Positions 32,262-64,000 of a DNA stretch of 64,000 bases are shown one piece after another. The DNA comes from Candidatus Omnitrophota bacterium (GTDB lineage: Bacteria; Omnitrophota; Gorgyraeia; Gygaellales; Profunditerraquicolaceae): contig JBAZKC010000001.1 of NCBI GenBank assembly GCA_041651035.1, forward strand, positions 515,244 to 579,243, read 5' to 3'. Position 1 is the first letter of the stretch. Each line of letters starts with the position of its first letter. Made by a program: the position numbers and the translations under genes. The notes below the pieces were generated by a model that was not told the origin of the DNA, searched no databases, and saw nothing but the letters and a program-made list of their open reading frames with translations.

Positions 32262-32291
32262 AAAGAGCTTTTATTTAAGCAGGAGGAATAA

Positions 32292-32630: not shown

Positions 32631-32657
32631 GCCGTTTTAATGTAGGATGTTTTAAAT

Positions 32658-32981: not shown

Positions 32982-32984
32982 AGG

Positions 32985-33326: not shown

Positions 33327-33337
33327 AAGGATGAACT

Positions 33338-34300: not shown

Positions 34301-34311
34301 AGGAGAATGTG

Positions 34312-34746: not shown

Positions 34747-34766
34747 GGATTACGAAGGTAGTAAAT

Positions 34767-37410: not shown

Positions 37411-37449
37411 GACAATCCAACCCAATTTAAACCTTTTTAGGAGGCAGGC

Positions 37450-38307: not shown

Positions 38308-38337
38308 ATCATAATATAAATACGAAAGAGAGGGGAT

Positions 38338-39192
38338 ATGCTTCTGGTAATTTATATATTCTTAGCTGCGGCAGCCGCGCTTGTCATAATTGGTATATCA
38401 GGCTCTATCCAGCCTGGAGCGAGGCGCGCCCCGCTTCCCCATCCGCAGGCGAACAGGCCGCGAGTAAGCTTCTCTTTCAGCCAGAAATTATTAGAGAAAC
38501 TCAAATTGGATGTAAAAATAAAGAATAAATTAGCCGCTGCCCATGTGATGAACATTACAGCCGGCCAGTTCTTTGATATCAGGCTTGCCCTGCTGGTTAT
38601 CGCGGGCAGTATGAGTTTTCTCCTTCTAAAGAAGATCGACCCTCCGGTAATGCTTATATTCCTTGCCTTGGCATATCTTATTCCCGATCTGTGGCTGAAA
38701 AGGAAGATAAGCCAGCGTAAATACGAGATCGCCCGGGTCCTGCCCGAGACAGTAGATCTGCTGGGTTTATGCGTAGAGGCAGGCCTGGATTTTACTACGG
38801 CAGTAAAATGGGTCATTGAAAAGAAGGTCTCTGCTAACCCTATGGTTGAAGAATTAGCCCTGGTATTGGATGAGATAAAATGGGGCAAGCCGCGCAGCCA
38901 GGCACTAAAGGATATGGCTAAGAGATTGAATGTCCCGGAAGTAAGTTCCTTTGTCCAGGCCCTGGTGCAGGCAGAGCGCATGGGTACGCCTGTAGGAGAG
39001 GCATTTGGCATCATATCTGAAGATACCCGTTTACAGCGTTTTCGCAGGGGAGAGCGTTATGCCCTGCAAGCTCCCATAAAGATCCTTCTGCCTTTGATTT
39101 TCTGTATATTGCCGGTAATCGGTATTATCATTGGCGGCCCTATACTCTTACAGTTTACTCAAGGCGGTTTATTCACCGGATTTGCTAAATAG
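38338..39192 (+). CDS. tadC: Flp pilus assembly protein TadC (T2SS-F domain)
   Basis: T2SSF-like core (…ALKDMAKRLNVPEVSSFVQALVQAERMGTPVGEAF…) plus TM helices. Confidence 0.7.
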   Translation: MLLVIYIFLAAAAALVIIGISGSIQPGARRAPLPHPQANRPRVSFSFSQKLLEKLKLDVKIKNKLAAAHVMNITAGQFFDIRLALLVIAGSMSFLLLKKIDPPVMLIFLALAYLIPDLWLKRKISQRKYEIARVLPETVDLLGLCVEAGLDFTTAVKWVIEKKVSANPMVEELALVLDEIKWGKPRSQALKDMAKRLNVPEVSSFVQALVQAERMGTPVGEAFGIISEDTRLQRFRRGERYALQAPIKILLPLIFCILPVIGIIIGGPILLQFTQGGLFTGFAK

Positions 39193-51600: not shown

Positions 51601-54600
51601 CAAACAGCCTTAATGAATATAAAGAGTGACGAGAGGACGTATATTGAAAAAGTTTTAAGCAACAGGGAATTCTTCATTAACTCATTCCAGAACTTGGGTA
51701 TGGATGCTGAGCGCATTATTAATGTAGGTCAGAGATTTTACGGAAAGCAAAAAGCAGTGTATCAGGCAACAGTGCTTTTAAAAGATGGGACAAGTAGAGA
51801 ATTTGCTTTGGTGGTAATTAAGGGCGGTGATAGCGTATTGAGAGATTTAGAATTCCAGAAGACGGTTAATAATAGAGACACTGCTATTACCCAAAAGCTT
51901 GGTGGATGGTCCGGGGAAGTAGAGAGAGGTGTTAGAGTAAAAATAGAGGAGTATGTTAGTGGGCTATCGCTGGAGAGTATACTGGATAGCCTAAGGGCGC
52001 AACTTAAGGATTCTCAGATCAGTGATAAAACAGCCAATAAAATAAAGCTATTAATGGAGGTACTGGTAAGAAAAGCTAATATGATAACTGTTCGGCTTTG
52101 GAATGTGACTGGTGAGTTAAATGATATAGATTATAGTAATTATAAGTTTGATAAGAAGAAAGGAGAGAAATTCCTCGCGCCGCGCATAGTGGATTTAGAT
52201 GCTCCGGATGATTTTGATCCCCGAACGCCAGATAACTTTGAAAAATCTACAGCGGGAGATTTGGTTACTTTATTAAGCGTCGATACTACTAATACCCTTG
52301 GCTTTGCTTCTATATTAGATGAATCTATCGCAAGAGCTATAAGCCAGGGTAGAGCTTTTGAAGAAGGTAAATTAGAAGGTATTAAGATTCTTAAGGATGC
52401 TTTGGCAGAACTCGCCATAAAGGCAAAAGAAGAAGCTCTCTATCCTTACGATAAACTGGTTCAGAGTCTAAAGAACTATCTCAGTGAAGAAGGAGGCGTT
52501 AAGGATTATGAATATGTTGATTACACTATAGATCGTTTCAAGCTTCCTGTCGCAGAAGAAGCCATTAACAGAATACCGCTATATAGCTCTTCGCCGGTTG
52601 TCGTCATAGCCGAGATTATGGATAAGCTTCAGACAAAAGACCTCACTATTATACAACGCAGGGAATTAATAGATGAGGTCAATAAGGTGCTTGTAGAGAA
52701 TCCTAAAGAGAGCAAAGAAGCCTTGATTGTTTGGCTTGTGAAGAATGCCCAAGATAAGCCATGGCCAGATGTATTAAAGGGTATTAGTGCTCTAGGATTA
52801 GGGGAAATCATGGCCGTAAAGGTGCCTTTTGGAGTGGATATCAATACCCTATTTGAAGGCTTATCATCCAAGGGGATAGTAAAAGAAATGGCTGTATCTC
52901 TTTATACAATGAAGCCGGGCATTACTCCTTACGATTACATATTGGCCAAAGATACAGCAAGAGGCCAGGCTTATTTGGTTGCATATGACAATAATGGTAT
53001 TACCGGAGTCTTTGAAGGCGCCGATATGGTCAAACAGCTTGAGACGATAGGCCTGATTAACCCGGATCCCACAGCCGCCACCACAGGCGTGGTATTGATA
53101 CAGACATCACTGGCAGGCACTGGGTTTGATAAGGCTATTTATGCAGAAGCCAAGGCCATTTTACATACCCATCCTCTTGCATATAAAACAGATAAAGGAC
53201 CTTCTAAGCCTTCGGAATCCGATAGGGAGTTATATAATTTAAGAAGAGGGAGAAAGCAGATTACTTCTTCTCCTCTCACATTACCTTCGGACGAAGGCCG
53301 CCAAGCAGACAAATTGCCTATACAGCCTATGTTACCTGCAACCATACCCTTATCTTCTCAACAGCAGCCTGTTGTAGGGTCCTTGGTGGGTATTTCAAGC
53401 AGCTCAATCATTGTCAATCCAGTTAATTCTGCGATTCTGCCCGGATTATTCGGGAGATTGACAGCCAATATACGGTTACCTATTAAGTCGTCAGTTCTGC
53501 ACCTTGCAAGTGGTCTTGCCCCGCCTGACAAGTCCGACTCGACTAAATCTAAGGCTGGTGTCGCGCAGATTAGAGTCGAGGTATCCATAGGCGCGGCTGA
53601 ATTAGTACAATTTGGTGCAATAGAAGTTGAAGAAAGCTCGGCTGATGCAGCTAATGTCAGTGGAACTACGAGTGCAGCCTCTAGAAACGCAGAGAAACAA
53701 GGAGTGAGGGCTGTCTCTGAGGAAACCGAGAAGTCCACCACTATACTTAGGGAGTATATAGGTATAGAAGGGGCATTACCTGATCAGGATGTAACAGTAA
53801 GTACTGCGGTTTACGCTAGAGTAATTGCGGAAATCGTCAACGCCCTAGGTGCAACCTTTGAAGTTGTAAAGGCCGGCATCGAAGAATTGCTAACCGGTAT
53901 CTTTGCAGTTAACAAGAAGCCGGTTGTTAGCGTGGCTGGTAACGCAGGCGTAATAAGCAGAGATCCTAATCTGATAGTTCCATCCTTTGGAACTGGTGAA
54001 ATCGGAGCTTCAAGGATTGTAGCCTCAACTCCGCTTGGAAAAATAGAAAGCGGCCGTTTTGTTCCCGAAATTTCTGCTAGCGCAGCTTCCCCCGTAACTA
54101 TTAATTTCAATACCACAAAAGAAATAGTAAGAAATATCACTGAAGCTAAGTCTCGCTTGAATTCTATAATAAGGGATGTCAAGAATGGAAAGGATCACAA
54201 TGGTTCTGTTAGAATAAAAGTCATGGAACTAGTGGATTGGTCTGAAGCTGAGAAAGAAATATACGCGCAAGATTTAAAAGATAGAATATACGCAAGTGAA
54301 GCTATAGAAAGCGAGGTTTTAGGAGTAGAAAAAGTATTAAAGGGCATTGCCGCAATGGATATTAAAAACGAACTAATTAGTTTGAGCGATGATCCTACTC
54401 AGATTTTGGCTCTTGTAGACAATGGATTAAGAGCGTTAGCCGAATTGTTAAGAAGTAATCCCGAGCTGCGTAAGAAGTTTATTGAAGAAATAGTTCCTGT
54501 TAGCTATCGTGGTTTATATAGGAAATTAGAAAAAGAAGATGTGGATAAAAAACAGTCAGCCAATAAGCTAGATAGCATAGAAGAGAAAACAAAAGGCATA

Positions 54601-57600
54601 GAAGAGAAAATCCAGGCATTAGAAAAAGATTTTGGGGAATTTAAGGAAGAAGTGAGAAAGGCTATAACAGCTTTAAAAGAAGCTGGGGAGCTCACAGAGC
54701 AGAAAATAGAAGAATTATACAAGAAATTCGCGGTATTAGAGCTTAATATGAAAAAAGGCGATATTAGCAAAGAAAGGATTGAAGAAAGAGCACGCGAATT
54801 AATTGAGAAAGCAAGGAAAAGAGGCGAAAAAGTCCTGCCGTCAGAAGAGCATCATTATTGGATGAGAGCGGCTGAAGAGCTATACAAAGAAGTCAGCGAA
54901 ATGGGTAACTGTTTGATAGGTACAGCAGTAGTTGACCCAACTTATAGAGAAGAGGTTATTCTTGAAGCTAGAAGGGCTGTTAAAAAGATGACTGGTTCGT
55001 TCTTTATAAAAATAAATACTTTCTTAGAAGTTATGAAGCGGGTTACCAAGCAGGAATGGAAAGGATACTGGGTAGATGCTGATAAGCTAAAGAACTCTAG
55101 TGATGCCGTCGCGAATAAGGTTATGATTGTGTATAAAGAAGGAAACCAATATCATAGCTTTAGGTTCAGTGAATACAAGGATGGTTATTTCTACGGATAT
55201 GCTGGTAATGATTTTGGGGAAACTATGCCGGTTAAGATACACGAATCAAAGGTTATTACCAATAATGGAAAGTTAACCAAGAAGTTAGAGATAATGATAG
55301 TATCTGCGAAAGAAATTAAGGATAAGTATTTCGTAAGCGAAAGAGAGCTATCCGAGGAAGAAAAAGAGATAGAAGTTGGGCAGAGGGGCGGCAGTGGTTC
55401 AGCCGGCGGCTCTACAGCCGGCCCTGGGACAGGAAGTACGGGTGCAGCAAATGCCGGTGGTGAAGGAAATGGTGCAGTTGGCCCTGGTTCTGACCCGGAT
55501 AAAGATGCCGCTGCTGACGAAGACGGTACGTACGAGTTTGGCCAAATCAATAATATAGATACGAATTACAGCGCCAGCACCCCAGTAATAAATTCTACAG
55601 CTAATTTTAATGCTAACAGCAGCCTTGCTCCTCCTGGCGTGGTTCATAAAGCGTCTTCTTCTCTTGCAAGATCCTTCCAGAAAATAATCCTCGTAGCGGC
55701 AATAGCGATAGCTATATTCTCAGCAGCCAAACCAGTTAACGCAGCAACTTATTATAGAGATAATTCAGGCGCAGCATGTGTCCGAGTAGATAAGGGAGAC
55801 ACATTCGGCGGGATTTTACAGGATATCCGCGTTAAGTTTAACGCTGTTGATTCTCAAGCATATAAAAGTTCAGGAGTATTCGGAGAATATTGGGGCCCCG
55901 GCGGTGCAGTTGAGCGCGCATGGGGTGAGATTTTCGCAGGCCAGCGTTCCAAGCCAGATCTTATTTATGCCGGAGAAGAATTCTCACTTGAGAATCTTCA
56001 TTTGCCTCCGATTGTTGAAGAGGCATTGACAGGTATGCCTGGCCCGAATCCTCCAAGCGAAGAAAATAAACCTACAGATTCTGCAGAGCCTTTAGGGGGA
56101 TCTCCTCAAACAACTAAGCAGGTAACCTCTATTAAGAAATACATAATTATTGCAGCGGTAGCTATAGCAGCGCTTGCATGTCTAATCTTATGGTTGCGTT
56201 CATTTAAGAATAAGAATACCAAGAAAAATGATCCTAAAGAAGTTCCTCCGTCCGGTACTTCCTATTATTACTATGACGGCGGGGAGCAGATTGAAATTAG
56301 AGAAGAAACAAGAAAGAAAGTTAATAATCTTAAAGACTCGGTTGGGGATGGAGATACGGCTGCTATTGACGAGTTAAGTAATTTGGCGAAGTCAGGCAAG
56401 CAAGATGAAAAGATATTGGCTCTGAAAGCGTTAATCAATCTGGCTGAAAATGGAAATGAAGCTACAAAGAAGGCAATTGAGAAATTGTTAGGTATAGATA
56501 TTTCCGGAATTAGAAAAGCGCTTTTTGTAAATGCCTTGTACGCAGGCATGGGTGATGAAATTATTCGTTTCCAACTTATACAAGCATTGCTGGCATATAA
56601 CCCGGATATAGAAGTAGACATAGTTACTAACCGTCCTTATATATATAACAGTTTAAAGGGTGAGTTTAAGGTACGTATAATTGATATTAGCAAGACACCG
56701 CATATGGATGCCCGGTTTGATGAAAAGGCCTCCGGCTCGTATTATGACGGACACGTGATTGATTTAACCAGGGCCCCGGTTGACTTATTAGCTGAAGAGT
56801 ATGATTTTGTTTTCTATGTTGGCCATAGAGAAGGTATGTTACCTTTCCGCGCGCCAGTAAAGATAGCTCTTAGTAACGTATGCCCGCATACAGCACCTCT
56901 TGAATTAACCGTAAGTAACGGAGATGTTTTCTTATTAGGCGGAGAAAAGAATGTTTATGCCACTAATCTTCTACTTGCCAGGGCTCTTGGTTTGCCGACA
57001 AGATTCGTGTTGCCTGAACTTTTTGTTTCAGAGGATGCTAGAGAATTTAAAGAAACAAGGGCGTGGTTAGAAGCTAACGGATTAAGAATTAATGAAGAAG
57101 GACGAAAGCCCGTAGTAGTCTTAGAGGCATTTGGCGGAGGACAGCAGGATAAAGGATTTTATCGCAATACTAAAGCGATAGCTGCCTTAGCCGAAAGTTT
57201 AAGAGACGCAGGGTATACAGTGGTTATTTCTCGTAATGATAGGGCAAATGCCGATAAGATTGCCGCCATAAAGAAAGAAATGGCAAATACTGCCGGTATC
57301 ATATTTATGCCTTCTCCTACTGAGCAGCCAGCCGCTTGGTTTAAATACTTCTTAAATATAGCTGACGCTGTTCTTGCTGTTGAGGGCGGTAGTCCTCATT
57401 TTGCATATGCTTTAGGCAAACCATTTATTATTATAGTTTCTCAGCCGGTTATGGCTCGTATGAATGGTTATGGTGAGCCGATTGAAATGTGGTTCTCGGA
57501 ATATGCGGATCGCGCCAAGCAAGATTATGTGGCATTTAATAAAGAATTTGATGAATTCTCCGCAGCAGATATAGCGAAAATAGTCAATAGGTTTACACAA

Positions 57601-60600
57601 ATATTACCTGTTTCTACATCGGTTTCAGCAGCCAGCCCGGTTTCTTCAAGAAGTCTGCCAGTAATCCCGGCCATCCCTGTAAGCTTAGCCGAGCAAAACT
57701 TAGTTAAAACAACAGCTAAGATTAGTTCCGGTGTTAATAGAATAGCTAGGATCTTAGATGCTACAAGAGAAATCCGCGAAAACTATAGAGAAAAATATGA
57801 CACGCTAGTAAATAGGTTTAAGGCAAATGGTGAAGGGACCACACGTATGTATAGGGCACCTCCTTATGGCCTTGCCAAGGCTGTTTTAGCAGCGATTTGG
57901 AACGCAATCAAGGAGGTGCTAAATGGACAAGAGAGAGGAACGAGAAGAGTTGATGAAGGAAGAGCTAATGGAAGAGGTAAGGAAGCGGCGCGCGCAATTC
58001 TTGCTTTTCTGGGTGGCACAACAGGCAGCAGAGAGAAAGGCAAGGAATCAGTAAGTTATGCTCTTGATGTTGCCTTCAGAAGCATTAAAACCGCGATAAC
58101 CAACGCAGCAAACCGTATTTATCTTACCTATATTAGTAAAGCCGGCTTAACAAGAAGCCCACCGTTAGTCAATTCCGTAACAACCAATATTAAGAATTTA
58201 TTAACCAGGCCGCAAGTCCTAATAACTACCGTGGCAGATTTATTAGGGTTAGCGGTTATTGTTGTGTATGGGGGCTTCCCAGGAGCCCTCCTCCGGGGAC
58301 TGACCTCTCCTCGGGAGGCCCTCATTACAACCTACGCTACAATAAAAGGAGGTGTACCATGTGCCCCATCAAAGTTGATGAATTACGCTTTGACCATCTT
58401 GTTGAATTCCTCAGAGATTCAACAGTATTTGCTGCAGCTAGGGAAAATGGTTATGGGTATCTCAGGTTATTCCTTATCAATGGTGAGAACGTCTACGCTC
58501 GTAATGGACGGGCTCAAGCCTGGGAGATCCTTACCGGCAGTATGCGCGAGAGCGTTATCGCTGGTATCACCGCAGCAAGGAATAACCACATCCCGGTCTA
58601 CAGAATCAACGGAGAAGGGCCTCATCAAGCCAACTAGAATACTTGGGGCCTTCTCTACCCCCACCGTCTCCAGTCCGATTGGTTATACGGCTCGCCATGA
58701 TGCAGGGATAGAGTTGTTTAGATTAATCATTGGATTTATGGTTGCAAAGACAAATAAGGATAGGTCAGATAAGGAAGTGGAAGCCGAACTTCTATCTGGT
58801 CTTCGGAATAAGAAGATAATAGATGTAGGTTGTGGCCGAATTCATAAATTGGTTGACTATCTGAGAAACGTAATAAAAGCAAAAGAAGTTTATGGCGTGG
58901 ATTACGCTCTGGGACAGGAAGTAGAATATGATATAAACACCGGGCTAATCAAAGGCGACGCACACGAGTTATCGGATTTATTAAAACGCAATGGAATAGA
59001 AGAGGTTGAGGTTGTGATAGCTACGGCATTCTTTAATTCGGAATGCGTAGAGATTTACACATTAGACAGATTACGAGTGTTACAGCAAATATACCAGGTT
59101 TTAGTCTCCGGCGGGAAGGTTTATTTAACCTCTTGTGCGAGAGACAAGGATTTAGAGGCTGAATTTGAAAAAGCAGGTTTTGACTTTGAGAATGTAAACA
59201 CTAGTGGATACTTAGGGATATATGTTTTGACCAAGCCTGGTAATGTTGTGGTTGTATCTAGTCCAATTGAATTTAGAAAGTTATTTTCTGGATCTCAGCC
59301 CAAAGATATCTTATTTCATAACACAACCTTAGCTGCTGTAGTAAGCGCTATAGCTAGAGAAGGTCAATTTGGTCCAGCTCCGCGTGAAGGCGTAGTGTAT
59401 ATGGCTGAGCAGCCGGTAGGCCCCAGCGACAGCTTTAATAATAGGGTTAGGAACGGAGACCTTAAATTCTTAAAACAAGGTATTGAGAAGACAGCTGCCA
59501 AATTAAATATTCCCCAAGGCAAGTTATGGAAATCTATTGAATTAAGCTTTAATAAGGACGCTTTAGCTTACGAAAATTATGGCTATATTATCGCCACCGG
59601 AGTTCATCTCAATATGTTATCTCTGGAAAGTAAGAAGATAATTCTAAAAGCTATCCCAACCTTGAGTCCTGATGACCATACTTGGATGGATGAGGGGTGG
59701 GCTATAGTAAAAGATTCCTCCAGTCCTATTTCTCTTAAAGATACAAATGCGGAAGAGTTGAGAATGGCGCTAAGTAAGTGGTCGATAGAGAGCCATTTTG
59801 AATGTTTCTTGTTCCGGGAAGAGAATTGGCCATCTTCTAATTCAGGCGCCGTGCTTCGTAAGATTGAGAAAGACGGAAAATTGGCAGGGTTCATTTCATA
59901 TTTAGTCGGAGATAGGGTATCCATAAAAGCGTTTATTGTTGATCCGAGCAAAAGAGGAGACGGAATAGGGAGTGAAGTTATTGAGTTAATTGCCGCAGAG
60001 AATATCGGTAAGGATATTGTTGTTGATCCTTTAAGCGATCGCGCGGTAGAGTTTTACAAGAGGCTCGGATTTAGAGTAGGCTTCGGTGGGAATTATGTAA
60101 GGTCAGCAGCTGAAATAATTAAATTTCTCCGCGCAGGCCCGCAACTTGACAAGGTTTTGAATAAATTCAATATTTTTTCTATAGACATAGGCCGGATAAA
60201 TGATATTGATACTCTCGCTCAAGAAGGTAAGCTCAACCTGGCTGCCGGCGGTGTGGTTATCGAAAACGGGAAGGACACATGCTTAAAGTGGACTGTGCGT
60301 GATGTATGTCAACTTGCCGCTAAACTTAGCGGTAGGCTTCTTTGTCATCCCGCCCTCGTTTCATTATACACAAGGGACAGTGTTTTGGAATTTGTCTTAC
60401 GGGAAGCCATTAAGAATTCATTGGCTCATGCCGTCCGTAATGGAGGAAAAGTTTGGATTACCTGGGAAATCAAAAATGATAAACTTATATTACAGGTAAT
60501 AGACGAAGGAAAACAGTCGTTTAAATTATCGACAAAAAGCTCTAAGGTTCAAATATCAGATTCATTTTCTCAACCTCTTGCGGGAGCCGGCCAAGGCTTA

Positions 60601-63600
60601 GAAATGATAAGAGAATACGCAGATCGCATTAAGATTACTCCCGTATACGATAAAAAGGGCAAAATAGCAGGTAATAGGATAATCCTTACAATATTCATAG
60701 CCCACCACCAGGCCAGAGAGGCTGAGCCTGCTTCCCCAGTCCAGCCCGGAGTTGTAAAAGAAGAAGGGCAGAAGAGCGAAGATGGCAGCGACTTTACCTC
60801 CAGCCCGCTTAAAGACACATTCGGCGCAGTGGTAAGGATTACCGGTGAGCAGAATAATACTACTGCCAGAGGCTCTTTTGTGGCAGGTTTAGTGGCATTG
60901 GCAGTTACAGGCGCAAGCATCTTAACATTATTACAATGGCCGTTTATTACTGTAGCTATTGCCGTTGGTTTAATAACAATTCCTTCGGTTATCAGCGCGG
61001 TTCTATTCTTTTCTCAAGGACTAAGAATTATCCACGCGTTTAATAAGGCCGGAGGGGTTAGAGGGTCGCCTTTAACCGCCCCAATCGCCTATGTTGTTAA
61101 TAACACAAAAACCACGGAATATGATCCTGCTTACAAGGAATTACATCCTAATCTGCAGAGGTCCATAGGATATCATGAGCAGGCCCATATAAACGGCAAG
61201 GGTGAAATAGCTGCTTATTTGGCGCAGGCAGGTTATTCTTTAAGGAAGAGTATTTACTTTATTATTCCTTCCGCGATATTTCTTTCCTCGGCTTATCTTC
61301 TAACTTTGCCTTTTATTGGTATCTTAGCATCATGGCAGGCAGCAGTATTATTTATAACGGCCGGCAGCTTGGTAATGTATGGTTTATTCAGCTTTGTAGA
61401 GAATGCAAAGATACTTAAAAGAGGCGAAGAGTTAGTATCAAGCTTTGGCATAAAGCTAAGCGAAGTAAAAAGCTTACCTCTAGATAAAATATTAGCCATT
61501 AATAATTACTTTAATAAGCATATTTATCCTGAATTACATAAACAAAGCCAGATTACCTTGGGTGGTAGTATAAAACGCATCCGCACCAATCCTTTAAGAA
61601 TGATTGTTTACGGCGGTTTAGGGGTTTTGGTTGCGGTTACTTTCCCACATCATTCCTTGCTTGCGATAATAGCTCTTATCGGCCTGTCAATTGTCCTTCC
61701 TTTTGTAGCTTTTGTAACTTATGATTTCTTCCACGCCGGCATGATTAAGGCAAAAGCTAGGGTTGAATTTTTCAGAGACTACTTAAGTGGTAAGTTGGAC
61801 GCAAATACTAAAGGAAAAGTTAAAGAAGAGATTACAAAATACGCAGAATCTCTGGAGAAAAATAATATTTCGTTTATCGCCAAATACCGGGCAGAGGTAA
61901 AAGGCCTCTGGGTAACATTCACATTATGCTGCCCGGCGATTTCAGGTATCGTTGTTTTCGCTTTAGGAAGAGGCCAGATGATTTTCTGGGGTTCTGTTGT
62001 CGCTTCAACTCTTATGCCGCTTATATTCACAACCCCCGCAGCTGCGGCAGGTTCAGTTTTGGTGTTCCTTCTGCCTGCCTTAAGCACTTTTGGGCTTGGG
62101 GCGTGTATAGGTCAATGTGCTGCTTTCCTTGGCGCATGGGGGCTTTCTTATACTTGGGGTGGTTTGTTAAGAATAGCTTTTATAGTGTGGGGTTTAAGGC
62201 TGGCTTCAATACCGATATTGCGCAATAAAATCCAGGATACCTATATGGTACGCAGATATGGATTCCCGGTTTTGAGCGGAGACTGGATTTATGATAATTG
62301 GGAGAAACTCGGCGAAGCGCATAAAATGATTATCAAGTATTATATTACAAAAGGATTAGTGCGTTCCGATGGTGTGCCTGGATTAACCGATTTAATCCGG
62401 AAAAAGGTTGGAGTCGGCAGGGAAAAGGAATATAAGAAAGGAGCGGCTTATCAATTATTCTATTATGTTTTATTTGATATTGCTGCATTAGGGTTTATTT
62501 TGATTTCTCCTTTGTTCGGCTTAAGATATGGCGTTGCCTATTTAGCGGGAAAGATAAATACAAAATTATTAGGACGTGAGAAAGAATCATTAGAAGAATT
62601 CTTAAAAGAAATAGAGAAAGAGTCTCCTTTATATCATATTTTATTAACTACCGGCGCCCAGTGGTGGATAAGCTATGGGCATATGTGGATTATCAGCGCA
62701 GAAATCGGCGCGGTCATAAAGAGCGGGGAATATTTAGCCGAACATCCTTACCTTAACTTTATCGGCCGACCCATTGATGCTGTAGCTAAGGCGTTGGAAG
62801 GTCAATACGGTTGTATTGCCTGGGGCTCCCATTTATTAAATATCGCTGATGATTCTCTGGGATTTAGCATGGCCCAGGTATTACATTCTGCCTTCCGTGG
62901 CACGGAAGATGTAAACAAATGGAACAATGAATTTAATTTAATATCATCCTTATATCAGGCGCAGTCTGGAACCGATAAGTTAACGCGTCTGGAATTGCGG
63001 ATAGAAGAATTAAGATCCAGAATTGATAAGGAAAGTGATGAGAATAAGAAGGGAAAACTCAATAAAAAATTAGAGAAATTAGAGAGAGAAAAAGAAGTAT
63101 TTGTTCTTAAGACGCAAAAGGAGGAAATAGCAGAATTTTTAGCAAAGAATAAGAAGACTTTCAAAGTGGGAGATCAAGCTTGGCAGATAGCTTATGTGCG
63201 AGAGATATTAAAGCTCTGGTTTAAGGGTAATGTTGGCATTAGTATAGGAGGGGTTAGTGATTGGGCATTTACTCCAGCAGTTACTGATCTATTTGAAGCT
63301 ATGGCATTAGAACCCCAGGAGTTTTATACAGATACAGTTGGTGCATATGTCCGTTTAGCACAGATGATGTCTGGCCTTGAGGCAACAGGTGTATGGGATA
63401 AAAAGACCCAGGAGAAAATAGGTACTATTGTCCTCGCTAACCTGGATGAAGCAATAGAAGGTAAGGAGACATCTGTAGAGGTGGATACTGAAGTTAAAGT
63501 AGTAGGATCGAATGAAACTATTCTCAACGTTACCAAGGCTCCATTGATTACGAGAGCCGAGAAAACCATAGAGTCGTTTGGGGCATTGTTAAGGCAAGGG

Positions 63601-64000
63601 CCTTCAGGCGTTTTTACAAGCTTGCTTAATAAAGAGCTCACTACGCCGATAGCTGGCATTTTACGCGATGCCTCCAGAGCGAATGATAGGACAGGAATTG
63701 ATGGTATAACAGAAGAAAAAGGACTTGAGCCTATCAGCATGCCTTTGAACAATGAGCCGGGTAATGAATGGATATTCCCTGTTAAAGGCGATTATTATAT
63801 CAGCTCGGGTTATGGCCTGAGAGATCCTATTAAGTTCGATAAAGCAAAGGAAGACGGCCTTGCTCCTGTGGGAGGGGATAACGTTGTTCCTGTAACGGAT
63901 AAAGATGTTGCTGAATCTATAGTTGAAATAGAAATCCCAGGAGCCGTAGTGGGAGTAGAGAATCCTGAATCTACGATAAAAGGAGAAAGCTCTGAGCCCT
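39697..64000 (+). CDS. Giant gene (3'-partial; at least 24,304 nt / at least 8,101 codons in window). Membrane-anchored mosaic protein: C39-like peptidase N-domain, TM-rich and coiled-coil regions, and LysM-, HEAT-, GT9-, SAM-MTase-, GNAT- and GHKL-ATPase-like modules
   Basis: ATG 39697 has AGGTG 6 nt upstream and an in-frame TAA at 39682-84. I read frame ≡1 (mod 3) codon by codon to position 64000 without meeting a stop. The ORF track lists no plus-strand ORF in this frame across the region, only short ORFs in the other frames and antisense. Recognisable motifs are listed in the findings. Confidence 0.75.
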   Translation, partial: MDKGGYKKTEPENKPLGKKGLSPQGTVPGTFKSSFKAWIRVVAFLVVAVFLPEQVAQAVEYDWRVIWQKPAVYTSSYANTKDIHNADIPLAIRDILKDISGKPVNAIKISPTVTVELSKPLNISKQRIEEIYNWLRGKTCGSKALYDLLSYKGFKVAEQDIAVMALTIDILNDVVKAEGNPKVIKTSLYALSKASESFGLKLYPVKMDLSQGLSPKGTVPFIAHLNSDHYILVTRVTDEKVYFVEEHKEEFLPKEKFLKDFSGYCLISRQPSAIGLESVNDAEAKKILGARSYKGEYADLSSLFEKPSTSDLLMSLGMTVATVAIGGIGGGFSNAIVSFGTACFTSQVSGALTTMAQKELGWSPQASALLGMAVGSGLNMGLSASMSSTILGSGKTGTFTSFKYAPAGVQAFAANHPFVAGFAAGTLMGAAQGGLQIVLNDAFSGMDSSLRYGLSGLLSSTAVTFGSNALMGALPGGSGGWDAIKDTWNANNKQLPKYMLTQGIALGVEYLATETGFMKPEYSRILGQGLGSLITGFAFKSPGGIEQPGRWFTIEDSPLVTTLGNAVIDGLISGGISVGLTKLSNATEGNEFLDAATPYMAMLVSNVLYAGYHSWIAKDLYSAPSLSGNGTIYGTEKQLRELGITNLDLTQHATFLDLAYGQSQNIAREHLTFGYSSPFTPAAWLQGQQEYTTFNFALFNNKMWDFTGLTYYVDAAKQAQDTLRKNGGNPDDWRKQQILPDFMQSLVYYNRSFANAQATNTFADLFRDVYANDLGGNKLGAYQAGWVLKDGELTKVSFNNALKTSYGNNVFGTYNSLADVYGKQLSWNQSFYSNIGLTNEWWLGMSSSYIYPVFGGRLGNDIFPMVDGSPIKENTTGSLTTTLDIYKNKGGISTVNIDTDTRKTILEVAGKYKQDMGLEEMPLIQRYKKDNGGEIILSEVLIGPLDGKMPLSTRDWDLVQTLGGQPTLAMHFWGKQEIRRTDGSKDYGIEGKLSITDGILSGSVINKDGKGIVGGATKGGIEIKDYDNGATTILLPSFGNISYTGEGKNNNFSLKSSNTTVDASVIRFNPGKDSAVPEISIGITGEVGKSVPMLYKNIPLLSGGSGSSSKIKAPTKSIGIDQIVSGSTLKDGVVATPEQLLNSLLVFTFTEQGVYLFVDKDTLSVEMPSDVYMAVGAGNKVALPTDNYKLVKEFIGLENKSLMVTNNGAVRVDRSLIQWTPGFGAVGYDVRTDGYYKTTVGEDGKLSKLDAYVLGDTGTRDITLNEQEWTETYTNNGSTYWIGKPGGLPAIAAEKDKTITSEFANADRTLTFKGVATTRSYDNGKNHAAPATVFIYNDPSGKFPRFAVEKGITKGKSSIDPTNPYAVPTSANFKTTHENLLLAQSGIFSMVNNVKYSPVVKKVEKSAFEKEVDRHKEVIAKAITKDKISSNIIKSQPDTKEAKKFIAQSGVAQTNNSKPIPLGLIISLGAKTLTTGFEEMHAETSMAVPAKKIGGEIKEIADGILSKLGTGQGHKSRREFVTKVISDGMSGNFNDTAFVASLPGKIRQYMETTGDHFKELKDSNGKSRYSGRGKEYDFAAYLLATVKDSASWVDYKKIIEAGGDAVLNSNKTVKDTAEADKKQRDAEMAVTEKYGYSREGYQGRDGYTEEGLNSLQDNYNRPIFRESVLAKLDANSARTEFGTLKSDRTTPYKVDKAIEETIKESGGYSPRDLLDETTRHTVFSNDYIKNYNNESLFWNLVLNMASSAGLVDPKTGALKEGLQDSYELGKIFEAASEKLHYYPEGFSGRTGYAYKNVNSLRDTYNNDNFSATVNNAIKVASDINKYAKGDTISTLSRMTGSGYYIPVLTKEDLVVEMSAIGTMAKYIAKDIVVNPAVSLISSGIAKLVAPSPVALFLNNSKIISTPSPIGRLLSSSISKSLSVQAILESVSAMFMANSVVADLYLSKDDKKATFEEAYRSSGLKGLGYDMKVENFGIKSLYSAAMDTGINEFAHGDYVRGTLSYGLGFGGQLSATTAAIIAVAATGGLGSVTVPEVIGAMGLPGFLLAGDTVAANIEMQHPLHEGIGALSSLTGAGFTAGRGILWSFGRVGDYVGLENDLVSRVDSINKTEMEQLNTALRSLRGGEYWGPAAMAVISGARAYTQAYTGSYIVQFIAAPHEAIAGMVNLILKPGETLGAGKWDRFDVAAVTGSFVGGSLGFRGSLVFGDKVFKNLNIPSLARNISKFKGSTIGDIGISIAKGAPTAYLVTVGSSLVYPVLTNRSISSFSMSPFGQLGADTDSLWRASVGFSVIGSSTLAPVFKYLKTGELSAKLIKSSMAGGMALGTDYLVSRVQGQEYSLGRGAIVFSTAALSAFGLSYLGGKLPALLTKEYVSYTLGAGVSSLMGGIASNIAINGKYNFISTDPLMHFGIPAIITLAARLSAKDIGKLDSNISIQATNFGRNLVSRISPIHKFNPATGVLAKGFNIWGTIPLALTASGVVINNIDSIPADTKELINLALLTAGAMYITWGLRGEAGGGSGIKAIAERMFKKEITKTGAKVNWKSPDVWGIVSNASIPASVSALAILNSKGDNGQYEHFKNMSENLRFTLTLISGATLFAGIGGYKELWTNLTRGENVFTGKVLVKEKGAWKWELFKKSADGKLTEPINIYTPRAMLNLLGNRGVYWGATAVWVFGGGKLSDNETFKTIHTVTSIGLLAAGVIIPGVKPFVKNLGRSYNLLTGELGGKSGPSLFAYEIAKTALPIVPALTIGMAGYTDVQSYIYSMKDSQVTNILKYAFGLNEFKDSVIITGRSYYKDNTLTYEQIKDRFESEYKKPFDYLHASWFMTLASIKEELKKEGLSDAQRKGLEEKLKYYQGLSEKDFAVGTGKFRWLMRAQSGYEGFKMALWFGPVLYFVRPLLEAGLRRMPISGEVQAFLGEKGMGDSLIPKAKLPGTNIFSKLANKYALRPFYMAQGLIMEEQVRENIFSFMFNPFVTSAGVRLNTDPSSDGYRTQQQLLEGLQESNDFMGGRFGISNINSRVIKGLAEGGFTVTGISTPKVEDATNVPDAAEINNKLATNYTEGLNMIKDLPAGAVITINIPAEKHSSEMAAGNYRYEITSKSAWSKSIELYITEKGINQGLKTGSRDPVVTLTQAKDYAVDPVTKEASERVLVSRFNTEQINAVISGSDDIKITFKNKEGSSWVFTARELMPAVYERLENEPALREQVNALPAFQGLEVIQQVSFLESGMPRSPPSEQQIKARIEEIEGEYSTLLQRYNSSQDKNLIPGIQALDNRRIELEQGLVTNQTVVDKELSGITIIVQNIAPYSKRSRRFVEKDRELHLAYTQFQRSQDPLSVSAILELEQEVKDLHKEVVYEHALLKHGGDKIALRKEIIDSRIQESTSAISFLEDLKAQITDKENGMDDERYEEHLIAVEEQKMMLAKKDAEAISKRIVEVKKQIAEEGTESFRTEEAKDIEGQLKDLNKIKLQIQKGRAINVKEITYQDFLSAKKWESIFREELTSPQYKFPAGLFRGVDESAPQYARDFVEYLIKVRANNQPGLNEATLKKREGLFRGYFTYSYTGKNVAALRIEFGDNLFKLFSLLDSTATRESTFDLAKALFDQRKQIAGLYSEQLINLSEIIYQALKDDGKTRELIDNLPAILNEIQNSEVKGLPPTYRLLGEEREQAKNERRLNKEQGTVNIDIQPTPIENVTYALYGEDGIELDIQKMGSLLDILKNYSHELNHAIFKSLSVKEKKAIYDIFESDEVVNRLRYAMLYFRLMEQGGEWREELLSKFGIDLEHMDPSEVFNVVDKIKDTLSAHEYMFGIISRSANKEEGESRKKDLIEESLAVYQGYLILKGAQEELENDPNNAYLQTVFTPQLQRELKALSKIAEIIGPAIKDHPDVFEKVKDSLETIEANGGTLRKQQEENAEAADDASKPSSPLVTKMSQDEIMAKTLEAVAKAEGDKNAKVKTSSPIEQIEQTALMNIKSDERTYIEKVLSNREFFINSFQNLGMDAERIINVGQRFYGKQKAVYQATVLLKDGTSREFALVVIKGGDSVLRDLEFQKTVNNRDTAITQKLGGWSGEVERGVRVKIEEYVSGLSLESILDSLRAQLKDSQISDKTANKIKLLMEVLVRKANMITVRLWNVTGELNDIDYSNYKFDKKKGEKFLAPRIVDLDAPDDFDPRTPDNFEKSTAGDLVTLLSVDTTNTLGFASILDESIARAISQGRAFEEGKLEGIKILKDALAELAIKAKEEALYPYDKLVQSLKNYLSEEGGVKDYEYVDYTIDRFKLPVAEEAINRIPLYSSSPVVVIAEIMDKLQTKDLTIIQRRELIDEVNKVLVENPKESKEALIVWLVKNAQDKPWPDVLKGISALGLGEIMAVKVPFGVDINTLFEGLSSKGIVKEMAVSLYTMKPGITPYDYILAKDTARGQAYLVAYDNNGITGVFEGADMVKQLETIGLINPDPTAATTGVVLIQTSLAGTGFDKAIYAEAKAILHTHPLAYKTDKGPSKPSESDRELYNLRRGRKQITSSPLTLPSDEGRQADKLPIQPMLPATIPLSSQQQPVVGSLVGISSSSIIVNPVNSAILPGLFGRLTANIRLPIKSSVLHLASGLAPPDKSDSTKSKAGVAQIRVEVSIGAAELVQFGAIEVEESSADAANVSGTTSAASRNAEKQGVRAVSEETEKSTTILREYIGIEGALPDQDVTVSTAVYARVIAEIVNALGATFEVVKAGIEELLTGIFAVNKKPVVSVAGNAGVISRDPNLIVPSFGTGEIGASRIVASTPLGKIESGRFVPEISASAASPVTINFNTTKEIVRNITEAKSRLNSIIRDVKNGKDHNGSVRIKVMELVDWSEAEKEIYAQDLKDRIYASEAIESEVLGVEKVLKGIAAMDIKNELISLSDDPTQILALVDNGLRALAELLRSNPELRKKFIEEIVPVSYRGLYRKLEKEDVDKKQSANKLDSIEEKTKGIEEKIQALEKDFGEFKEEVRKAITALKEAGELTEQKIEELYKKFAVLELNMKKGDISKERIEERARELIEKARKRGEKVLPSEEHHYWMRAAEELYKEVSEMGNCLIGTAVVDPTYREEVILEARRAVKKMTGSFFIKINTFLEVMKRVTKQEWKGYWVDADKLKNSSDAVANKVMIVYKEGNQYHSFRFSEYKDGYFYGYAGNDFGETMPVKIHESKVITNNGKLTKKLEIMIVSAKEIKDKYFVSERELSEEEKEIEVGQRGGSGSAGGSTAGPGTGSTGAANAGGEGNGAVGPGSDPDKDAAADEDGTYEFGQINNIDTNYSASTPVINSTANFNANSSLAPPGVVHKASSSLARSFQKIILVAAIAIAIFSAAKPVNAATYYRDNSGAACVRVDKGDTFGGILQDIRVKFNAVDSQAYKSSGVFGEYWGPGGAVERAWGEIFAGQRSKPDLIYAGEEFSLENLHLPPIVEEALTGMPGPNPPSEENKPTDSAEPLGGSPQTTKQVTSIKKYIIIAAVAIAALACLILWLRSFKNKNTKKNDPKEVPPSGTSYYYYDGGEQIEIREETRKKVNNLKDSVGDGDTAAIDELSNLAKSGKQDEKILALKALINLAENGNEATKKAIEKLLGIDISGIRKALFVNALYAGMGDEIIRFQLIQALLAYNPDIEVDIVTNRPYIYNSLKGEFKVRIIDISKTPHMDARFDEKASGSYYDGHVIDLTRAPVDLLAEEYDFVFYVGHREGMLPFRAPVKIALSNVCPHTAPLELTVSNGDVFLLGGEKNVYATNLLLARALGLPTRFVLPELFVSEDAREFKETRAWLEANGLRINEEGRKPVVVLEAFGGGQQDKGFYRNTKAIAALAESLRDAGYTVVISRNDRANADKIAAIKKEMANTAGIIFMPSPTEQPAAWFKYFLNIADAVLAVEGGSPHFAYALGKPFIIIVSQPVMARMNGYGEPIEMWFSEYADRAKQDYVAFNKEFDEFSAADIAKIVNRFTQILPVSTSVSAASPVSSRSLPVIPAIPVSLAEQNLVKTTAKISSGVNRIARILDATREIRENYREKYDTLVNRFKANGEGTTRMYRAPPYGLAKAVLAAIWNAIKEVLNGQERGTRRVDEGRANGRGKEAARAILAFLGGTTGSREKGKESVSYALDVAFRSIKTAITNAANRIYLTYISKAGLTRSPPLVNSVTTNIKNLLTRPQVLITTVADLLGLAVIVVYGGFPGALLRGLTSPREALITTYATIKGGVPCAPSKLMNYALTILLNSSEIQQYLLQLGKMVMGISGYSLSMVRTSTLVMDGLKPGRSLPAVCARALSLVSPQQGITTSRSTESTEKGLIKPTRILGAFSTPTVSSPIGYTARHDAGIELFRLIIGFMVAKTNKDRSDKEVEAELLSGLRNKKIIDVGCGRIHKLVDYLRNVIKAKEVYGVDYALGQEVEYDINTGLIKGDAHELSDLLKRNGIEEVEVVIATAFFNSECVEIYTLDRLRVLQQIYQVLVSGGKVYLTSCARDKDLEAEFEKAGFDFENVNTSGYLGIYVLTKPGNVVVVSSPIEFRKLFSGSQPKDILFHNTTLAAVVSAIAREGQFGPAPREGVVYMAEQPVGPSDSFNNRVRNGDLKFLKQGIEKTAAKLNIPQGKLWKSIELSFNKDALAYENYGYIIATGVHLNMLSLESKKIILKAIPTLSPDDHTWMDEGWAIVKDSSSPISLKDTNAEELRMALSKWSIESHFECFLFREENWPSSNSGAVLRKIEKDGKLAGFISYLVGDRVSIKAFIVDPSKRGDGIGSEVIELIAAENIGKDIVVDPLSDRAVEFYKRLGFRVGFGGNYVRSAAEIIKFLRAGPQLDKVLNKFNIFSIDIGRINDIDTLAQEGKLNLAAGGVVIENGKDTCLKWTVRDVCQLAAKLSGRLLCHPALVSLYTRDSVLEFVLREAIKNSLAHAVRNGGKVWITWEIKNDKLILQVIDEGKQSFKLSTKSSKVQISDSFSQPLAGAGQGLEMIREYADRIKITPVYDKKGKIAGNRIILTIFIAHHQAREAEPASPVQPGVVKEEGQKSEDGSDFTSSPLKDTFGAVVRITGEQNNTTARGSFVAGLVALAVTGASILTLLQWPFITVAIAVGLITIPSVISAVLFFSQGLRIIHAFNKAGGVRGSPLTAPIAYVVNNTKTTEYDPAYKELHPNLQRSIGYHEQAHINGKGEIAAYLAQAGYSLRKSIYFIIPSAIFLSSAYLLTLPFIGILASWQAAVLFITAGSLVMYGLFSFVENAKILKRGEELVSSFGIKLSEVKSLPLDKILAINNYFNKHIYPELHKQSQITLGGSIKRIRTNPLRMIVYGGLGVLVAVTFPHHSLLAIIALIGLSIVLPFVAFVTYDFFHAGMIKAKARVEFFRDYLSGKLDANTKGKVKEEITKYAESLEKNNISFIAKYRAEVKGLWVTFTLCCPAISGIVVFALGRGQMIFWGSVVASTLMPLIFTTPAAAAGSVLVFLLPALSTFGLGACIGQCAAFLGAWGLSYTWGGLLRIAFIVWGLRLASIPILRNKIQDTYMVRRYGFPVLSGDWIYDNWEKLGEAHKMIIKYYITKGLVRSDGVPGLTDLIRKKVGVGREKEYKKGAAYQLFYYVLFDIAALGFILISPLFGLRYGVAYLAGKINTKLLGREKESLEEFLKEIEKESPLYHILLTTGAQWWISYGHMWIISAEIGAVIKSGEYLAEHPYLNFIGRPIDAVAKALEGQYGCIAWGSHLLNIADDSLGFSMAQVLHSAFRGTEDVNKWNNEFNLISSLYQAQSGTDKLTRLELRIEELRSRIDKESDENKKGKLNKKLEKLEREKEVFVLKTQKEEIAEFLAKNKKTFKVGDQAWQIAYVREILKLWFKGNVGISIGGVSDWAFTPAVTDLFEAMALEPQEFYTDTVGAYVRLAQMMSGLEATGVWDKKTQEKIGTIVLANLDEAIEGKETSVEVDTEVKVVGSNETILNVTKAPLITRAEKTIESFGALLRQGPSGVFTSLLNKELTTPIAGILRDASRANDRTGIDGITEEKGLEPISMPLNNEPGNEWIFPVKGDYYISSGYGLRDPIKFDKAKEDGLAPVGGDNVVPVTDKDVAESIVEIEIPGAVVGVENPESTIKGESSEP

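Follow-up and report, generated by a model that had tools for sequence, protein, structure and literature searches.

We consider it fairly probable that the segment described here encodes part of a giant membrane-anchored protein of many modules in an Omnitrophota bacterium; its shuffled cassettes would act as an array of enzymes and regulators on the membrane's cytoplasmic side, and its gene lies next to a pilus locus. The analyzed DNA (the window, a stretch of 64,000 nucleotides) covers only the first 27% of this protein, and the segment under study corresponds approximately to residues 5350-7010. The giant gene belongs to a known kind, because the gene class and the domain mix (glycosyltransferase, methyltransferase, GNAT, HATPase_c and HEAT, with an N-terminal C39 and T2SS neighbors) are already published.

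A giant gene downstream of a pilus locus

23288..39192, + strand: Tad/T2SS-like pilus locus (RcpC/CpaB, a secretin-TonB_C fusion, a ParA-like-CpaF ATPase fusion and two T2SSF proteins)
39697..63999, + strand: open reading frame of the giant protein, running on past the window edge
40252..40503, + strand: Peptidase_C39, N-terminal domain of the giant protein (Pfam PF03412, 40.4 bits)

The pilus locus lies directly upstream of the giant gene. Its CpaF ATPase domain finds its best matches in Omnitrophota MAGs (68% and 61% identity), and both Tad loci and giant ORFs are on record for Omnitrophota (PMC10066038). The assignment to Omnitrophota follows from such best matches and from the database names of module homologues. 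The called product of the giant gene, which exceeds 30,000 codons, has 30,550 aa on the source contig, a minimum length as it is cut by the contig end. According to hydropathy, a hydrophobic anchor at aa 37-63 precedes the C39 domain, in which Cys and His motifs can be read from the sequence, and many TM segments follow along the protein.

Frame 1 is free of stops over 39685-63999, or 8,105 codons (log10 P of no stop by chance approximately -243), compared to a longest stop-free run of 265 codons in the other five frames. Within this single frame, TM segments alternate with several enzyme folds that are unrelated to each other, in agreement with a preliminary description that had placed many modules on one polypeptide. 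Codon-usage scoring favors frame 1 in all 300-nt scoring windows from 55.0 to 61.5 kb, without a frame switch among the modules, and no SD site with ATG was found at the module borders. That separate genes have been joined by assembly or sequencing errors, or that the frame is open without expression of a protein, is highly improbable and already largely refuted. The weak codon signal for frame 1 at 58.15-58.6 kb would fit such an artefact, as would shared-word database searches, which found no relatives. The protein sequence encoded at 58.15-58.6 kb is, however, conserved in an Omnitrophota MAG protein, and at least two further contigs have the same protein neighborhood. The length of the stop-free run, the borders without SD and ATG, and the absence of Rfam elements and tandem repeats also argue against it.

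A predicted membrane hairpin and helical array

55681..55731, + strand: TM helix A (aa 5333-5349; hydropathy 2.0, flanking charges), just upstream of the segment under study
55732..56139, + strand: loop of 136 aa between TM helices A and B, predicted to be extracytoplasmic, previously described as LysM-like
56140..56196, + strand: TM helix B (aa 5486-5504; Kyte-Doolittle 2.79, flanking charges)
56302..56490, + strand: short four-helix alpha-hairpin array, possibly HEAT/ARM-like (aa 5540-5602; single-sequence AF2 model, pLDDT 80-90)

The preliminary description had reported a TM helix at about 56.13-56.19 kb, a GT9-like fold at about 56.53-57.56 kb, a class I methyltransferase at about 58.7-59.25 kb, a GNAT domain at about 59.7-60.1 kb and a GHKL/anti-sigma-type ATPase at about 60.29-60.7 kb. 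Hydropathy, Pfam, NCBIfam and fold searches agree with these, but not with the LysM-like module at about 55.74-56.01 kb: in the 136-aa loop, Pfam gave no LysM match up to E<=10, and neither PDB sequences nor Foldseek provided one. A peptidoglycan-binding LysM element is not supported. For the helical array, where the preliminary description had HEAT/PBS-like repeats (about 56.29-56.6 kb), Pfam gave no HEAT match, and a fold search with the AF2 model gave matches of the ARM/HEAT/alphaRep type, all of them non-significant. HEAT_2 is, however, carried by relatives of the adjacent GT9-like domain.

Enzyme and regulatory modules

56515..57603, + strand: GT9-like GT-B glycosyltransferase module (aa 5611-5973; family profile, AF2 model, Foldseek)
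57631..58668, + strand: conserved module U1 (aa 5983-6328; homology to P0001 and P0103, codon bias weak)
58669..59256, + strand: class I SAM-methyltransferase module (aa 6329-6524, Pfam core aa 6375-6496; Pfam, PDB, homologues)
59257..59718, + strand: conserved module Y (aa 6525-6678; 54% identity to P0001 aa 1795-1960)
59719..60114, + strand: GNAT acetyltransferase module (aa 6679-6810, Pfam core aa 6697-6798; Acetyltransf_1, PDB, homologue P0018)
60298..60657, + strand: GHKL ATPase of the anti-sigma Ser-kinase type (aa 6872-6991; HATPase_c_2, 35.6 bits, above GA 27.4)

The GT9-like module scores below the Pfam and NCBIfam cut-offs for GT9 (Glyco_transf_9, 17.7 bits, GA 22). A profile of its 20-sequence family nevertheless matches WaaF (1PSW, E=4e-6), and 10 of the 20 members match PF01075. 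The AF2 model (pLDDT 81.7, pTM 0.84) has WaaC, 3TOV and WaaF as top Foldseek matches (E ~1e-11). It shares the two-Rossmann GT-B fold with WaaC and WaaF (6DFE, 2H1H, 1PSW), 3TOV and the protein heptosyltransferase TibC (Foldseek E 9e-12 to 1e-10, TM-score up to 0.71; 4RAP for TibC). At the C-terminus, VEGGxxHxAYxLGKP can be aligned with WaaF NDSGLMHVAAALNRP, and all family members keep an N-terminal G-D motif and a mid-domain K. However, identity to these proteins is only 11-15%, the giant protein has E where the C-terminal motif usually has D, and its module is embedded, whereas the GT9 heptosyltransferases are soluble LPS-core enzymes of ~330 aa.

The same divergent family occurs in metagenome proteins of ~770 aa with the order (GT2)-GT9-like-HEAT_2, which are annotated as "ADP-heptose:LPS heptosyltransferase" and in which the GDE, K-G and EG..H positions are invariant. 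They associate the GT9-like domain with HEAT-type repeats, as the giant protein may also do, but they stand alone, and their repeats are C-terminal and detected by Pfam, whereas the helical piece of the giant protein is N-terminal and escapes Pfam.

The methyltransferase (core nt ~58807-59172) matches Methyltransf_31 with 29.5 bits (GA 27) and PDB 6mro with E 0.005; its DxGCG and GVD motifs are kept in 5 homologues. GNAT (core nt ~59773-60078) matches Acetyltransf_1 with 43.1 bits and PDB 1y9w with E 5e-4, and has KRGDGIGS as motif A. The GHKL module has the N-box EAIKN, DEG and the G2-box GAGQGL, with DEGKQ rather than DxGxG as G1 box. RsbW (5e-7) and SpoIIAB (6e-5), the anti-sigma Ser kinases, are its best NCBIfam matches, far below the equivalog cut-offs (29 vs 145 bits). 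In contrast to these kinases, the module is tethered within a giant protein, and a search of the window for a STAS or sigma partner found none, although sigma-70 modules are embedded in related giants (P0028, and P0076 by its name).

U1 and Y are two conserved modules that had been overlooked. The U1 homologue P0103 is a fragment from an Omnitrophota MAG, and Y has no match in Pfam, NCBIfam or PDB.

Probable orientation in the membrane

The cofactors of all four enzyme families, nucleotides or CoA, belong to the cytoplasm (NDP-sugar, SAM, acetyl-CoA, ATP). The K/R counts flanking TM helices A and B, with 6 K/R in the 15 aa after TM helix B, follow a positive-inside pattern that places aa 5505 onward inside. 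Because of these two observations, the enzyme modules probably face the cytoplasm, in disagreement with their earlier placement at the cell surface. The TM hairpin would then expose the 136-aa loop to the outside and return the chain to the cytoplasmic side. Hydropathy also identifies a hydrophobic segment in U1 (aa 6178-6203); should it be a TM helix, methyltransferase, GNAT and GHKL would lie on the opposite side from GT9.

The cell-surface toolbox of the preliminary description, read together with the predation model of the literature, would have the modules outside the cell, acting on the envelope of prey, and a LysM-like piece binding peptidoglycan. Such an arrangement would suit the flanking TM segments and the adjoining Tad pilus locus. 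Attachment and cell-wall degradation have been suggested in the literature, and West-Roberts et al. (2023, bioRxiv 10.1101/2023.11.21.568195) report that TMHMM puts most domains of giant proteins outside the cell. We regard it as quite unlikely, as the LysM lacks Pfam, PDB and fold support, cofactors and flanking charges speak for the inside, and the homologues contain cytoplasmic signaling parts (RsbW/SpoIIAB-type kinases, receiver, GGDEF and sigma-70 modules).

A motif at the module borders

57631..57642, + strand: ASPV following the GT9-like module (AF2 model tail, pLDDT<50; aligns with P0001 SSPI, aa 1060)
58669..58680, + strand: SSPI ahead of the methyltransferase (aligned in the giant protein, P0004, P0007 and P0009)
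59257..59268, + strand: SSPI at the methyltransferase/Y junction (motif scan, homologue alignment)
59719..59730, + strand: SSPI at the Y/GNAT junction (aligned with P0018 SSPV)
60730..60741, + strand: ASPV after the GHKL module (motif scan)
60799..60810, + strand: SSPL ahead of the TM block that follows from aa 7065 (motif scan, hydropathy)

The motif [SA]-S-P-[ILV] is enriched about 39-fold and sits at module borders; 11 sites were counted where 1.2 are expected. It lies in inter-domain linkers, a few residues ahead of the first strand of each module, and is aligned at module starts in homologues, with varying codons. Its order is specific (57 SSP[ILV] vs 2 SPS[ILV] and 2 PSS[ILV]), and the neighboring genes have a single site in 11,156 aa. 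It may serve as a signature of linkers or as a site of processing, and is possibly a new observation; neither 10.1101/2023.11.21.568195 nor 10.64898/2026.06.07.730766 mentions a linker or border motif.

A processing site would make the product a polyprotein, which the C39-like or another protease would cut at or near the motif to release the enzymes and regulators separately, and the chain on one polypeptide would be a precursor only. Cleavage has been proposed by West-Roberts et al., according to whom there are no known cleavage points (10.1101/2023.11.21.568195). A short, order-specific motif under protein-level selection, located in linkers and in the low-confidence tail of the AF2 model, would suit this idea, as would the C39 domain, which has Cys and His motifs, and the sigma-70 modules of related giant fragments (P0028; the name of P0076), which plausibly need release to act. 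However, C39 peptidases cleave after Gly-Gly, not Ser-Ser-Pro, no protease with the latter specificity was identified, and the GNAT/GHKL junction has no [SA]SP[ILV] site. The same data would also be accounted for by a modification site or by a conserved motif for linking or capping, and we find cleavage rather unlikely.

Relation to other giant proteins

The closest relatives, partial long proteins of Candidatus Omnitrophota MAGs, contain the same types of module in different orders; by their database names, the module homologues P0018, P0103, P0003, P0012 and P0076 are partial proteins of Omnitrophota. Three blocks of P0001 are co-linear with the giant protein, with TPR and Response_reg in place of GT9 and methyltransferase. 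P0018 has GNAT and the downstream TM region without GHKL, and P0023 runs from GT9-like through HATPase_c_2 to methyltransferases. Receiver, GGDEF and sigma-70 modules also occur in homologues. Since module relatives stand alone or combine differently (GT9-like proteins of 367 aa and ~770 aa, long proteins of other order), the earlier suggestion of "fused formerly independent genes" is right in the evolutionary sense, though not as a concatenation artefact, given the lack of stops, frame switches and SD sites with ATG.

The chain of domains had been called unusual, yet the same mix is found in published Omnitrophota giants, as "Archaeovorin-type" proteins (10.1101/2023.11.21.568195) and as the "multi-enzyme" class, co-occurrence module 1 (Nielsen & Lui 2026, bioRxiv 10.64898/2026.06.07.730766), with the same architecture class and co-occurrence of methyltransferase, HATPase and GNAT. 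Shared features are a length above 30,000 aa, an N-terminal C39 beside a signal anchor, many TM helices, an adjoining T2SS/Tad-like locus, and embedded modules of the glycosyltransferase, methyltransferase, GNAT, HATPase_c and, possibly, HEAT type. Omnitrophota giants, including this one, are similar in architecture but unique in sequence. The two papers stress GT5, GT1 and GT4, and neither mentions a GT9-like module; conversely, the 8,105 aa within the window showed none of the SecA-like, NUDIX and glycoside hydrolase parts.

Together, our data suggest a tethered array in which the cytoplasmic cassettes would follow in the order helical-repeat piece, GT9-like, U1, methyltransferase, Y, GNAT and RsbW/SpoIIAB-type GHKL. 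The cassettes may fold independently, each set apart by the [SA]-S-P-[I/L/V] linker motif, and were probably taken from independent genes and shuffled between related giant proteins. As a set of enzymes and regulators tethered to the membrane and facing the cytoplasm, they would draw on NDP-sugar, SAM, acetyl-CoA and ATP to act on envelope precursors, on the giant protein itself or on partner proteins near the pilus and export machinery, rather than serve as extracellular cell-wall tools.

The giant reading frame

Frame 1 of the window is free of stop codons from position 39685 to the window end, a run of 8,105 codons with a chance probability of about 10^-243; in none of the other five frames does a run exceed 265 codons. 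The first ATG, at 39697, is preceded by an AGGTGA motif, and a gene call on the ENA contig ERZ27247363:k141_1136661 (127,809 bp), on which the locus was placed through an exact match of the neighbouring T2SSF protein, has the same start. The product called there has 30,550 amino acids and is itself incomplete because, by arithmetic, it runs to the end of the contig. A further contig, of 0.2-1 Mb, has the same TadC. The following features of the protein are referred to below.

Features of the giant protein (forward strand; nucleotide positions are those of the window)
39697-63999 (+): the giant open reading frame, open past the window end
aa 5333-5349: transmembrane helix TM-A
56140-56196 (aa 5486-5504): transmembrane helix TM-B
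aa 5540-5602: helical piece
57631-58668 (aa 5983-6328): module U1, homologous to parts of the related long proteins P0001 and P0103
59257-59718 (aa 6525-6678): module Y, 54% identical to part of P0001

The preliminary description of this region had named concatenation of separate genes among the findings that would undo it. Across 55.0-61.5 kb, a codon-usage model trained on the remainder of the giant frame favours frame 1 in each 300-nt window, with a score of about zero only at 58.15-58.6 kb, within U1. The frame-1 translation of this stretch has a conserved counterpart in an Omnitrophota MAG protein, and the frame-3 alternative at 58.2-58.6 kb was rejected on this ground. Further evidence against an artefact of assembly or concatenation is the lack of an in-frame Shine-Dalgarno sequence with ATG at any module border, of Rfam families and tandem repeats in the giant frame, and of internal repeats in a self-BLAST. 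With the frame free of stops and such internal starts, we consider an artefact essentially excluded.

Enzyme-like modules

The GT9-like module of the giant protein stays below threshold with Pfam PF01075 (17.7 bits, under the gathering score of 22) and with the NCBIfam heptosyltransferase I model (E 9e-5). A single-sequence PDB search with this piece gave only noise (cyclophilin matches), a contig scan with the region as query found no relative, and word-index homologue searches with the whole region, the GT9 piece and the GT9 family alignment found none either. Relatives were recovered by exhaustive HMMER search alone, which returned 116, the majority matching the GT9-like domain. In a 20-sequence alignment of this domain the G-D-E, K-G and E-G..H positions are invariant. 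PF01075 matches half of these members (10/20) at E<=0.01, the best at 8e-9, and two relatives scanned apart reach its gathering score (P0006 with 34.5 bits, P0028 with 29.9 bits).

Although the Pfam match is sub-threshold, the 20-sequence family profile finds heptosyltransferase II (WaaF, 1PSW) at E=4e-6. Its VEGGxxHxAYxLGKP stretch is aligned with NDSGLMHVAAALNRP of WaaF, at the C-terminal sugar-nucleotide motif D-(S/T)-G-x-x-H-x-A, where the giant protein has VEGGSPHFAYALGKP, with E replacing D; E300, G301 and H305 of this motif are invariant in 20 relatives. AlphaFold2, run on the same alignment, gave a model with a pLDDT of 81.7 and a pTM of 0.84, for which the top seven Foldseek matches are all GT9 (E 9e-12 to 6e-10), led by WaaC, 3TOV and WaaF (E 9e-12 to 1e-10, TM up to 0.71), with TibC following at about 1e-6. 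Predicted fold and profile thus confirm the first proposal that the module is GT9-like, in the form of a divergent GT-B domain. The family, with more than 100 representatives, joins the module repertoire of these giant proteins.

The methyltransferase module scores 29.5 bits with Methyltransf_31 (gathering score 27). Five homologues all keep the D-x-G-x-G positions of its motif I (IIDVGCG), with C changed to Y in one of them, and the acidic residue that closes beta-2, the D of GVD, is likewise invariant. Acetyltransf_1 matches the GNAT module with 43.1 bits (gathering score 20.7), and motif A (R/Q-x-x-G-x-G/A) is intact, reading RGDGIG here and RNKGIG in the relative P0018. The GHKL module scores 35.6 bits with HATPase_c_2 (gathering score 27.4) and has RsbW and SpoIIAB as its best NCBIfam matches; a single-sequence PDB search with it found nothing. 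Its N box (EAIKN) and G2 box (GAGQGL) are present, and its G1 box, read as DEGKQ, lacks the second G and is degenerate. Within the window, no STAS-domain or sigma-factor partner for it could be recognized. These findings bear out the class I SAM methyltransferase, GNAT and GHKL assignments of the preliminary description. The four folds are real and their cofactor motifs largely intact.

The transmembrane helix first described holds as TM-B, and a second one, TM-A, lies just upstream. The segment that had been read as LysM is therefore the 136-aa loop between two flanking helices. A LysM domain would be recognized by a PF01476 match or by the solved LysM fold, beta-alpha-alpha-beta over about 44 aa. 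The loop has no PF01476 match even at E<=10, a PDB phmmer search with it gave antibody noise only, and Foldseek on its single-sequence AlphaFold2 model (pLDDT 46-79) placed no LysM among the matches. The two halves of the putative motif are 42 aa apart; such halves are typically about 17 aa apart. The LysM assignment was wrong; the original observation otherwise holds in large part, with the four enzyme folds and the helix standing.

The piece downstream of TM-B, first described as HEAT-like, is an uncertain case, and it has no Pfam match to HEAT, HEAT_2 or HEAT_PBS. Four helices are predicted in it with a pLDDT of 80-90 (single-sequence AlphaFold2 model), and Foldseek returned ARM, alphaRep and TOG matches, all non-significant (E>0.8). 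HEAT_2 repeats are carried by stand-alone relatives of the GT9-like domain. Two conserved modules, U1 and Y, had been missed; no family was detectable for either, and a PDB search with Y found nothing.

Three further motifs were noticed by eye. The sequence FPVKGDYYISSGYGLRDPI (window 63775-63831) resembles the start of an M23 (LytM-type) peptidoglycan endopeptidase domain, a reading that Pfam does not support, the truncated piece having no match; the window ends short of the catalytic motifs. A HExxH-like HEQAH (61174-61188) in the TM-rich block was likewise without a Pfam match in a dedicated scan. The third, a JAMM-like HTHP...SESD (53164-53184), lies in an unannotated module without a Pfam match in a chunk scan at E<=0.1.

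Cassettes shared among giant proteins

Long relatives share blocks with the giant protein in the same order, with differing inserts. P0001 is co-linear with it at aa 4997-5346, 5979-6281 and 6529-6697, with TPR repeats and a receiver domain in place of the loop/GT9 and methyltransferase parts. P0018 has the GNAT module and the downstream TM region without GHKL, P0023 runs from a GT9-like domain through HATPase_c_2 to two methyltransferases, and P0028 combines GT9, HEAT_2 and sigma-70 regions. Outside such long proteins, the GT9-like domain makes up nearly all of a 367-aa protein beginning with Met, and it is part of a family of about 770 aa with the order (GT2)-GT9-like-HEAT. These shuffled and stand-alone occurrences indicate cassettes that arose independently of one another, so the earlier suggestion of fused genes is right in the evolutionary sense only.

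Several of the closest module relatives carry Omnitrophota names, namely P0018, P0103 and P0003 (these three marked partial), P0012 and P0076; P0018 and P0103 lie on short contigs and extend to their ends. When metagenomes were scanned with the alignments of Y and of the methyltransferase, the outcome was either nothing or just generic methyltransferases of 30% identity, none of them on giant reading frames.

P0028 has modules for sigma-70 regions 2 and 4 embedded at aa 3739-3972, and P0076 has sigma-70 by name; receiver and GGDEF domains are embedded in other related long proteins. These modules and the RsbW-type kinase of the present protein suggest that signalling parts are built into giant proteins. 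A sigma factor tethered in this way would plausibly have to be released.

Topology

TM blocks flank the cassettes of the giant protein on both sides, one spanning aa 5333-5504 and the other starting at aa 7065. K/R counts around TM-A and TM-B would place the 136-aa loop outside and the chain from aa 5505 onward inside. The cytoplasmic cofactors that the modules would use (NDP-sugars, SAM, acetyl-CoA and ATP) point the same way, as do sister modules of signalling type (receiver, GGDEF, sigma-70, anti-sigma-type kinase). On this reading of sequence features the most plausible location of the enzyme and regulatory cassettes is the cytoplasm, where they would form an array anchored to the inner side of the membrane, next to the pilus machinery. 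Its targets could be envelope precursors, partner proteins or the giant protein itself. The main uncertainty is a hydrophobic core segment of U1 (aa 6178-6203), a possible TM or re-entrant helix in a module whose codon-usage signal is near zero. The preliminary description had suggested, as one reading of the chain of folds, a toolbox at the cell surface or for cell contact. Charge counts, cofactors and sister modules all disfavour this half of its interpretation, the half concerning gene fusion being the one retained. A cytoplasmic location would bear on the debated “extracellular cell-wall degrading” model of such proteins.

Gene neighbourhood and class

A Tad/T2SS-like locus (23288-39192, +) lies directly upstream of the giant gene, with RcpC/CpaB, a secretin, a CpaF ATPase (T2SSE) and two T2SSF genes. 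Among 185,579 species genomes, the best matches of its CpaF domain are in two Candidatus Omnitrophota MAGs (68% and 61% identity). As judged by these best matches and by the names of the module relatives, the locus belongs to an Omnitrophota genome.

Other features in and upstream of the Tad locus
2100-11969: sugar-nucleotide modification cluster (RmlD-like reductase, phosphomannose isomerase, class III and DegT aminotransferases, B12-radical SAM enzyme, C-methyltransferase), with divergently oriented genes between it and the Tad locus
22319-23287: gene for a SurA-like parvulin, a prolyl isomerase of PpiC type, immediately before the pilus genes
24201-25802: the secretin, with an unusual C-terminal TonB_C fusion
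25809-27980: the CpaF-type ATPase, with an unusual N-terminal ParA/MinD-like (TadZ/CpaE-like) fusion
28477-28959 (-): IS200/IS605-type Y1 transposase, between the ATPase and T2SSF genes
29173-31128 (+): ORF of 651 aa in the same interval, Pro-rich and repetitive in part, without a family match
about 31950-33338 (+): four successive small genes (107-113 aa), as called on the source contig, between the transposase region and a 320-aa ORF; no Pfam match is on record, and they may encode paralogous minor pilins or TadE-like proteins

Omnitrophota giants have been described with an N-terminal C39 domain, many TM helices, glycosyl- and methyltransferases, GNAT, HATPase_c, HEAT and T2SS-like neighbours (10.1101/2023.11.21.568195). 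Methyltransferase, HATPase and GNAT form a co-occurrence module of giants, 13 of 14 of which are flanked by Tad or T2SS (10.64898/2026.06.07.730766), and Tad complexes and ORFs above 20 kb are found throughout the phylum (PMC10066038). Our protein has a hydrophobic anchor at aa 37-63 followed by a C39 peptidase domain (PF03412, 40.4 bits). It resembles the Archaeovorin-type/multi-enzyme proteins of Omnitrophota in size class, C39 domain with anchor, many TM helices and T2SS/Tad neighbours; the divergent SecA DEAD-like domain found in most members is absent from its first 8,105 aa. This gene is a further example of a published class, and the domain chain alone changes little.

A conserved motif at module borders

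The one lead that could matter is a short motif between modules, [SAT]-S-P-[ILV], also written [SA]-S-P-[ILV]. The 8,105 aa contain 11 sites where 1.2 would be expected and where 1,000 shuffles gave 6 at most, and all 11 lie within aa 3931-7039 (window 51475-60810), the module-rich part of the protein. With a single site in the 11,156 aa of the window's other 29 ORFs, the enrichment over neighbouring genes is about 39-fold. Close homologues are enriched to an equal degree (observed/expected: P0076 17/0.9, P0103 11/0.6, P0001 9/0.3, P0004 6/0.2, P0018 6/0.3). Residue order matters, since the pooled sequences hold 57 SSP[ILV] and only 2 each of SPS[ILV] and PSS[ILV]; the rarity of the permuted motifs led us to reject a purely compositional origin. 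Because codons vary from site to site, the constraint acts at the protein level, and an origin in DNA or RNA was rejected for the same reason.

The sites fall between modules: after GT9 (in a tail of the AlphaFold2 model with pLDDT<50), before and after the methyltransferase, before GNAT, and twice after GHKL. Between homologues the motif is aligned where the methyltransferase, GNAT, Y and U1 modules begin, and it stands on both sides of the receiver domain in P0001 and in P0018 and of the GT1 domain in P0103. A link between the Ser-Pro of the motif and the SurA-like parvulin would be pure speculation.

Linkers or motifs of this kind go unmentioned in two preprints on giant genes, one of which calls the cleavage points of giants unknown (10.1101/2023.11.21.568195; 10.64898/2026.06.07.730766).

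In a plausible rival reading, the giant protein would be a polyprotein cleaved at its SSP sites. The broader proposal, that the motif is a dedicated punctuation signal of Omnitrophota giants, a site of processing or of phospho- or glyco-modification that makes or regulates separate enzymes and regulators, we put forward as a rather unlikely one. If it were true, the motif would supply the cleavage points that the literature calls unknown, and giant genes would be bacterial polyprotein operons in one ORF. In practical terms, the motif offers a simple rule for cutting giants into foldable units for structure prediction, and it gives a testable handle on whether bacterial giant proteins work whole or cut.
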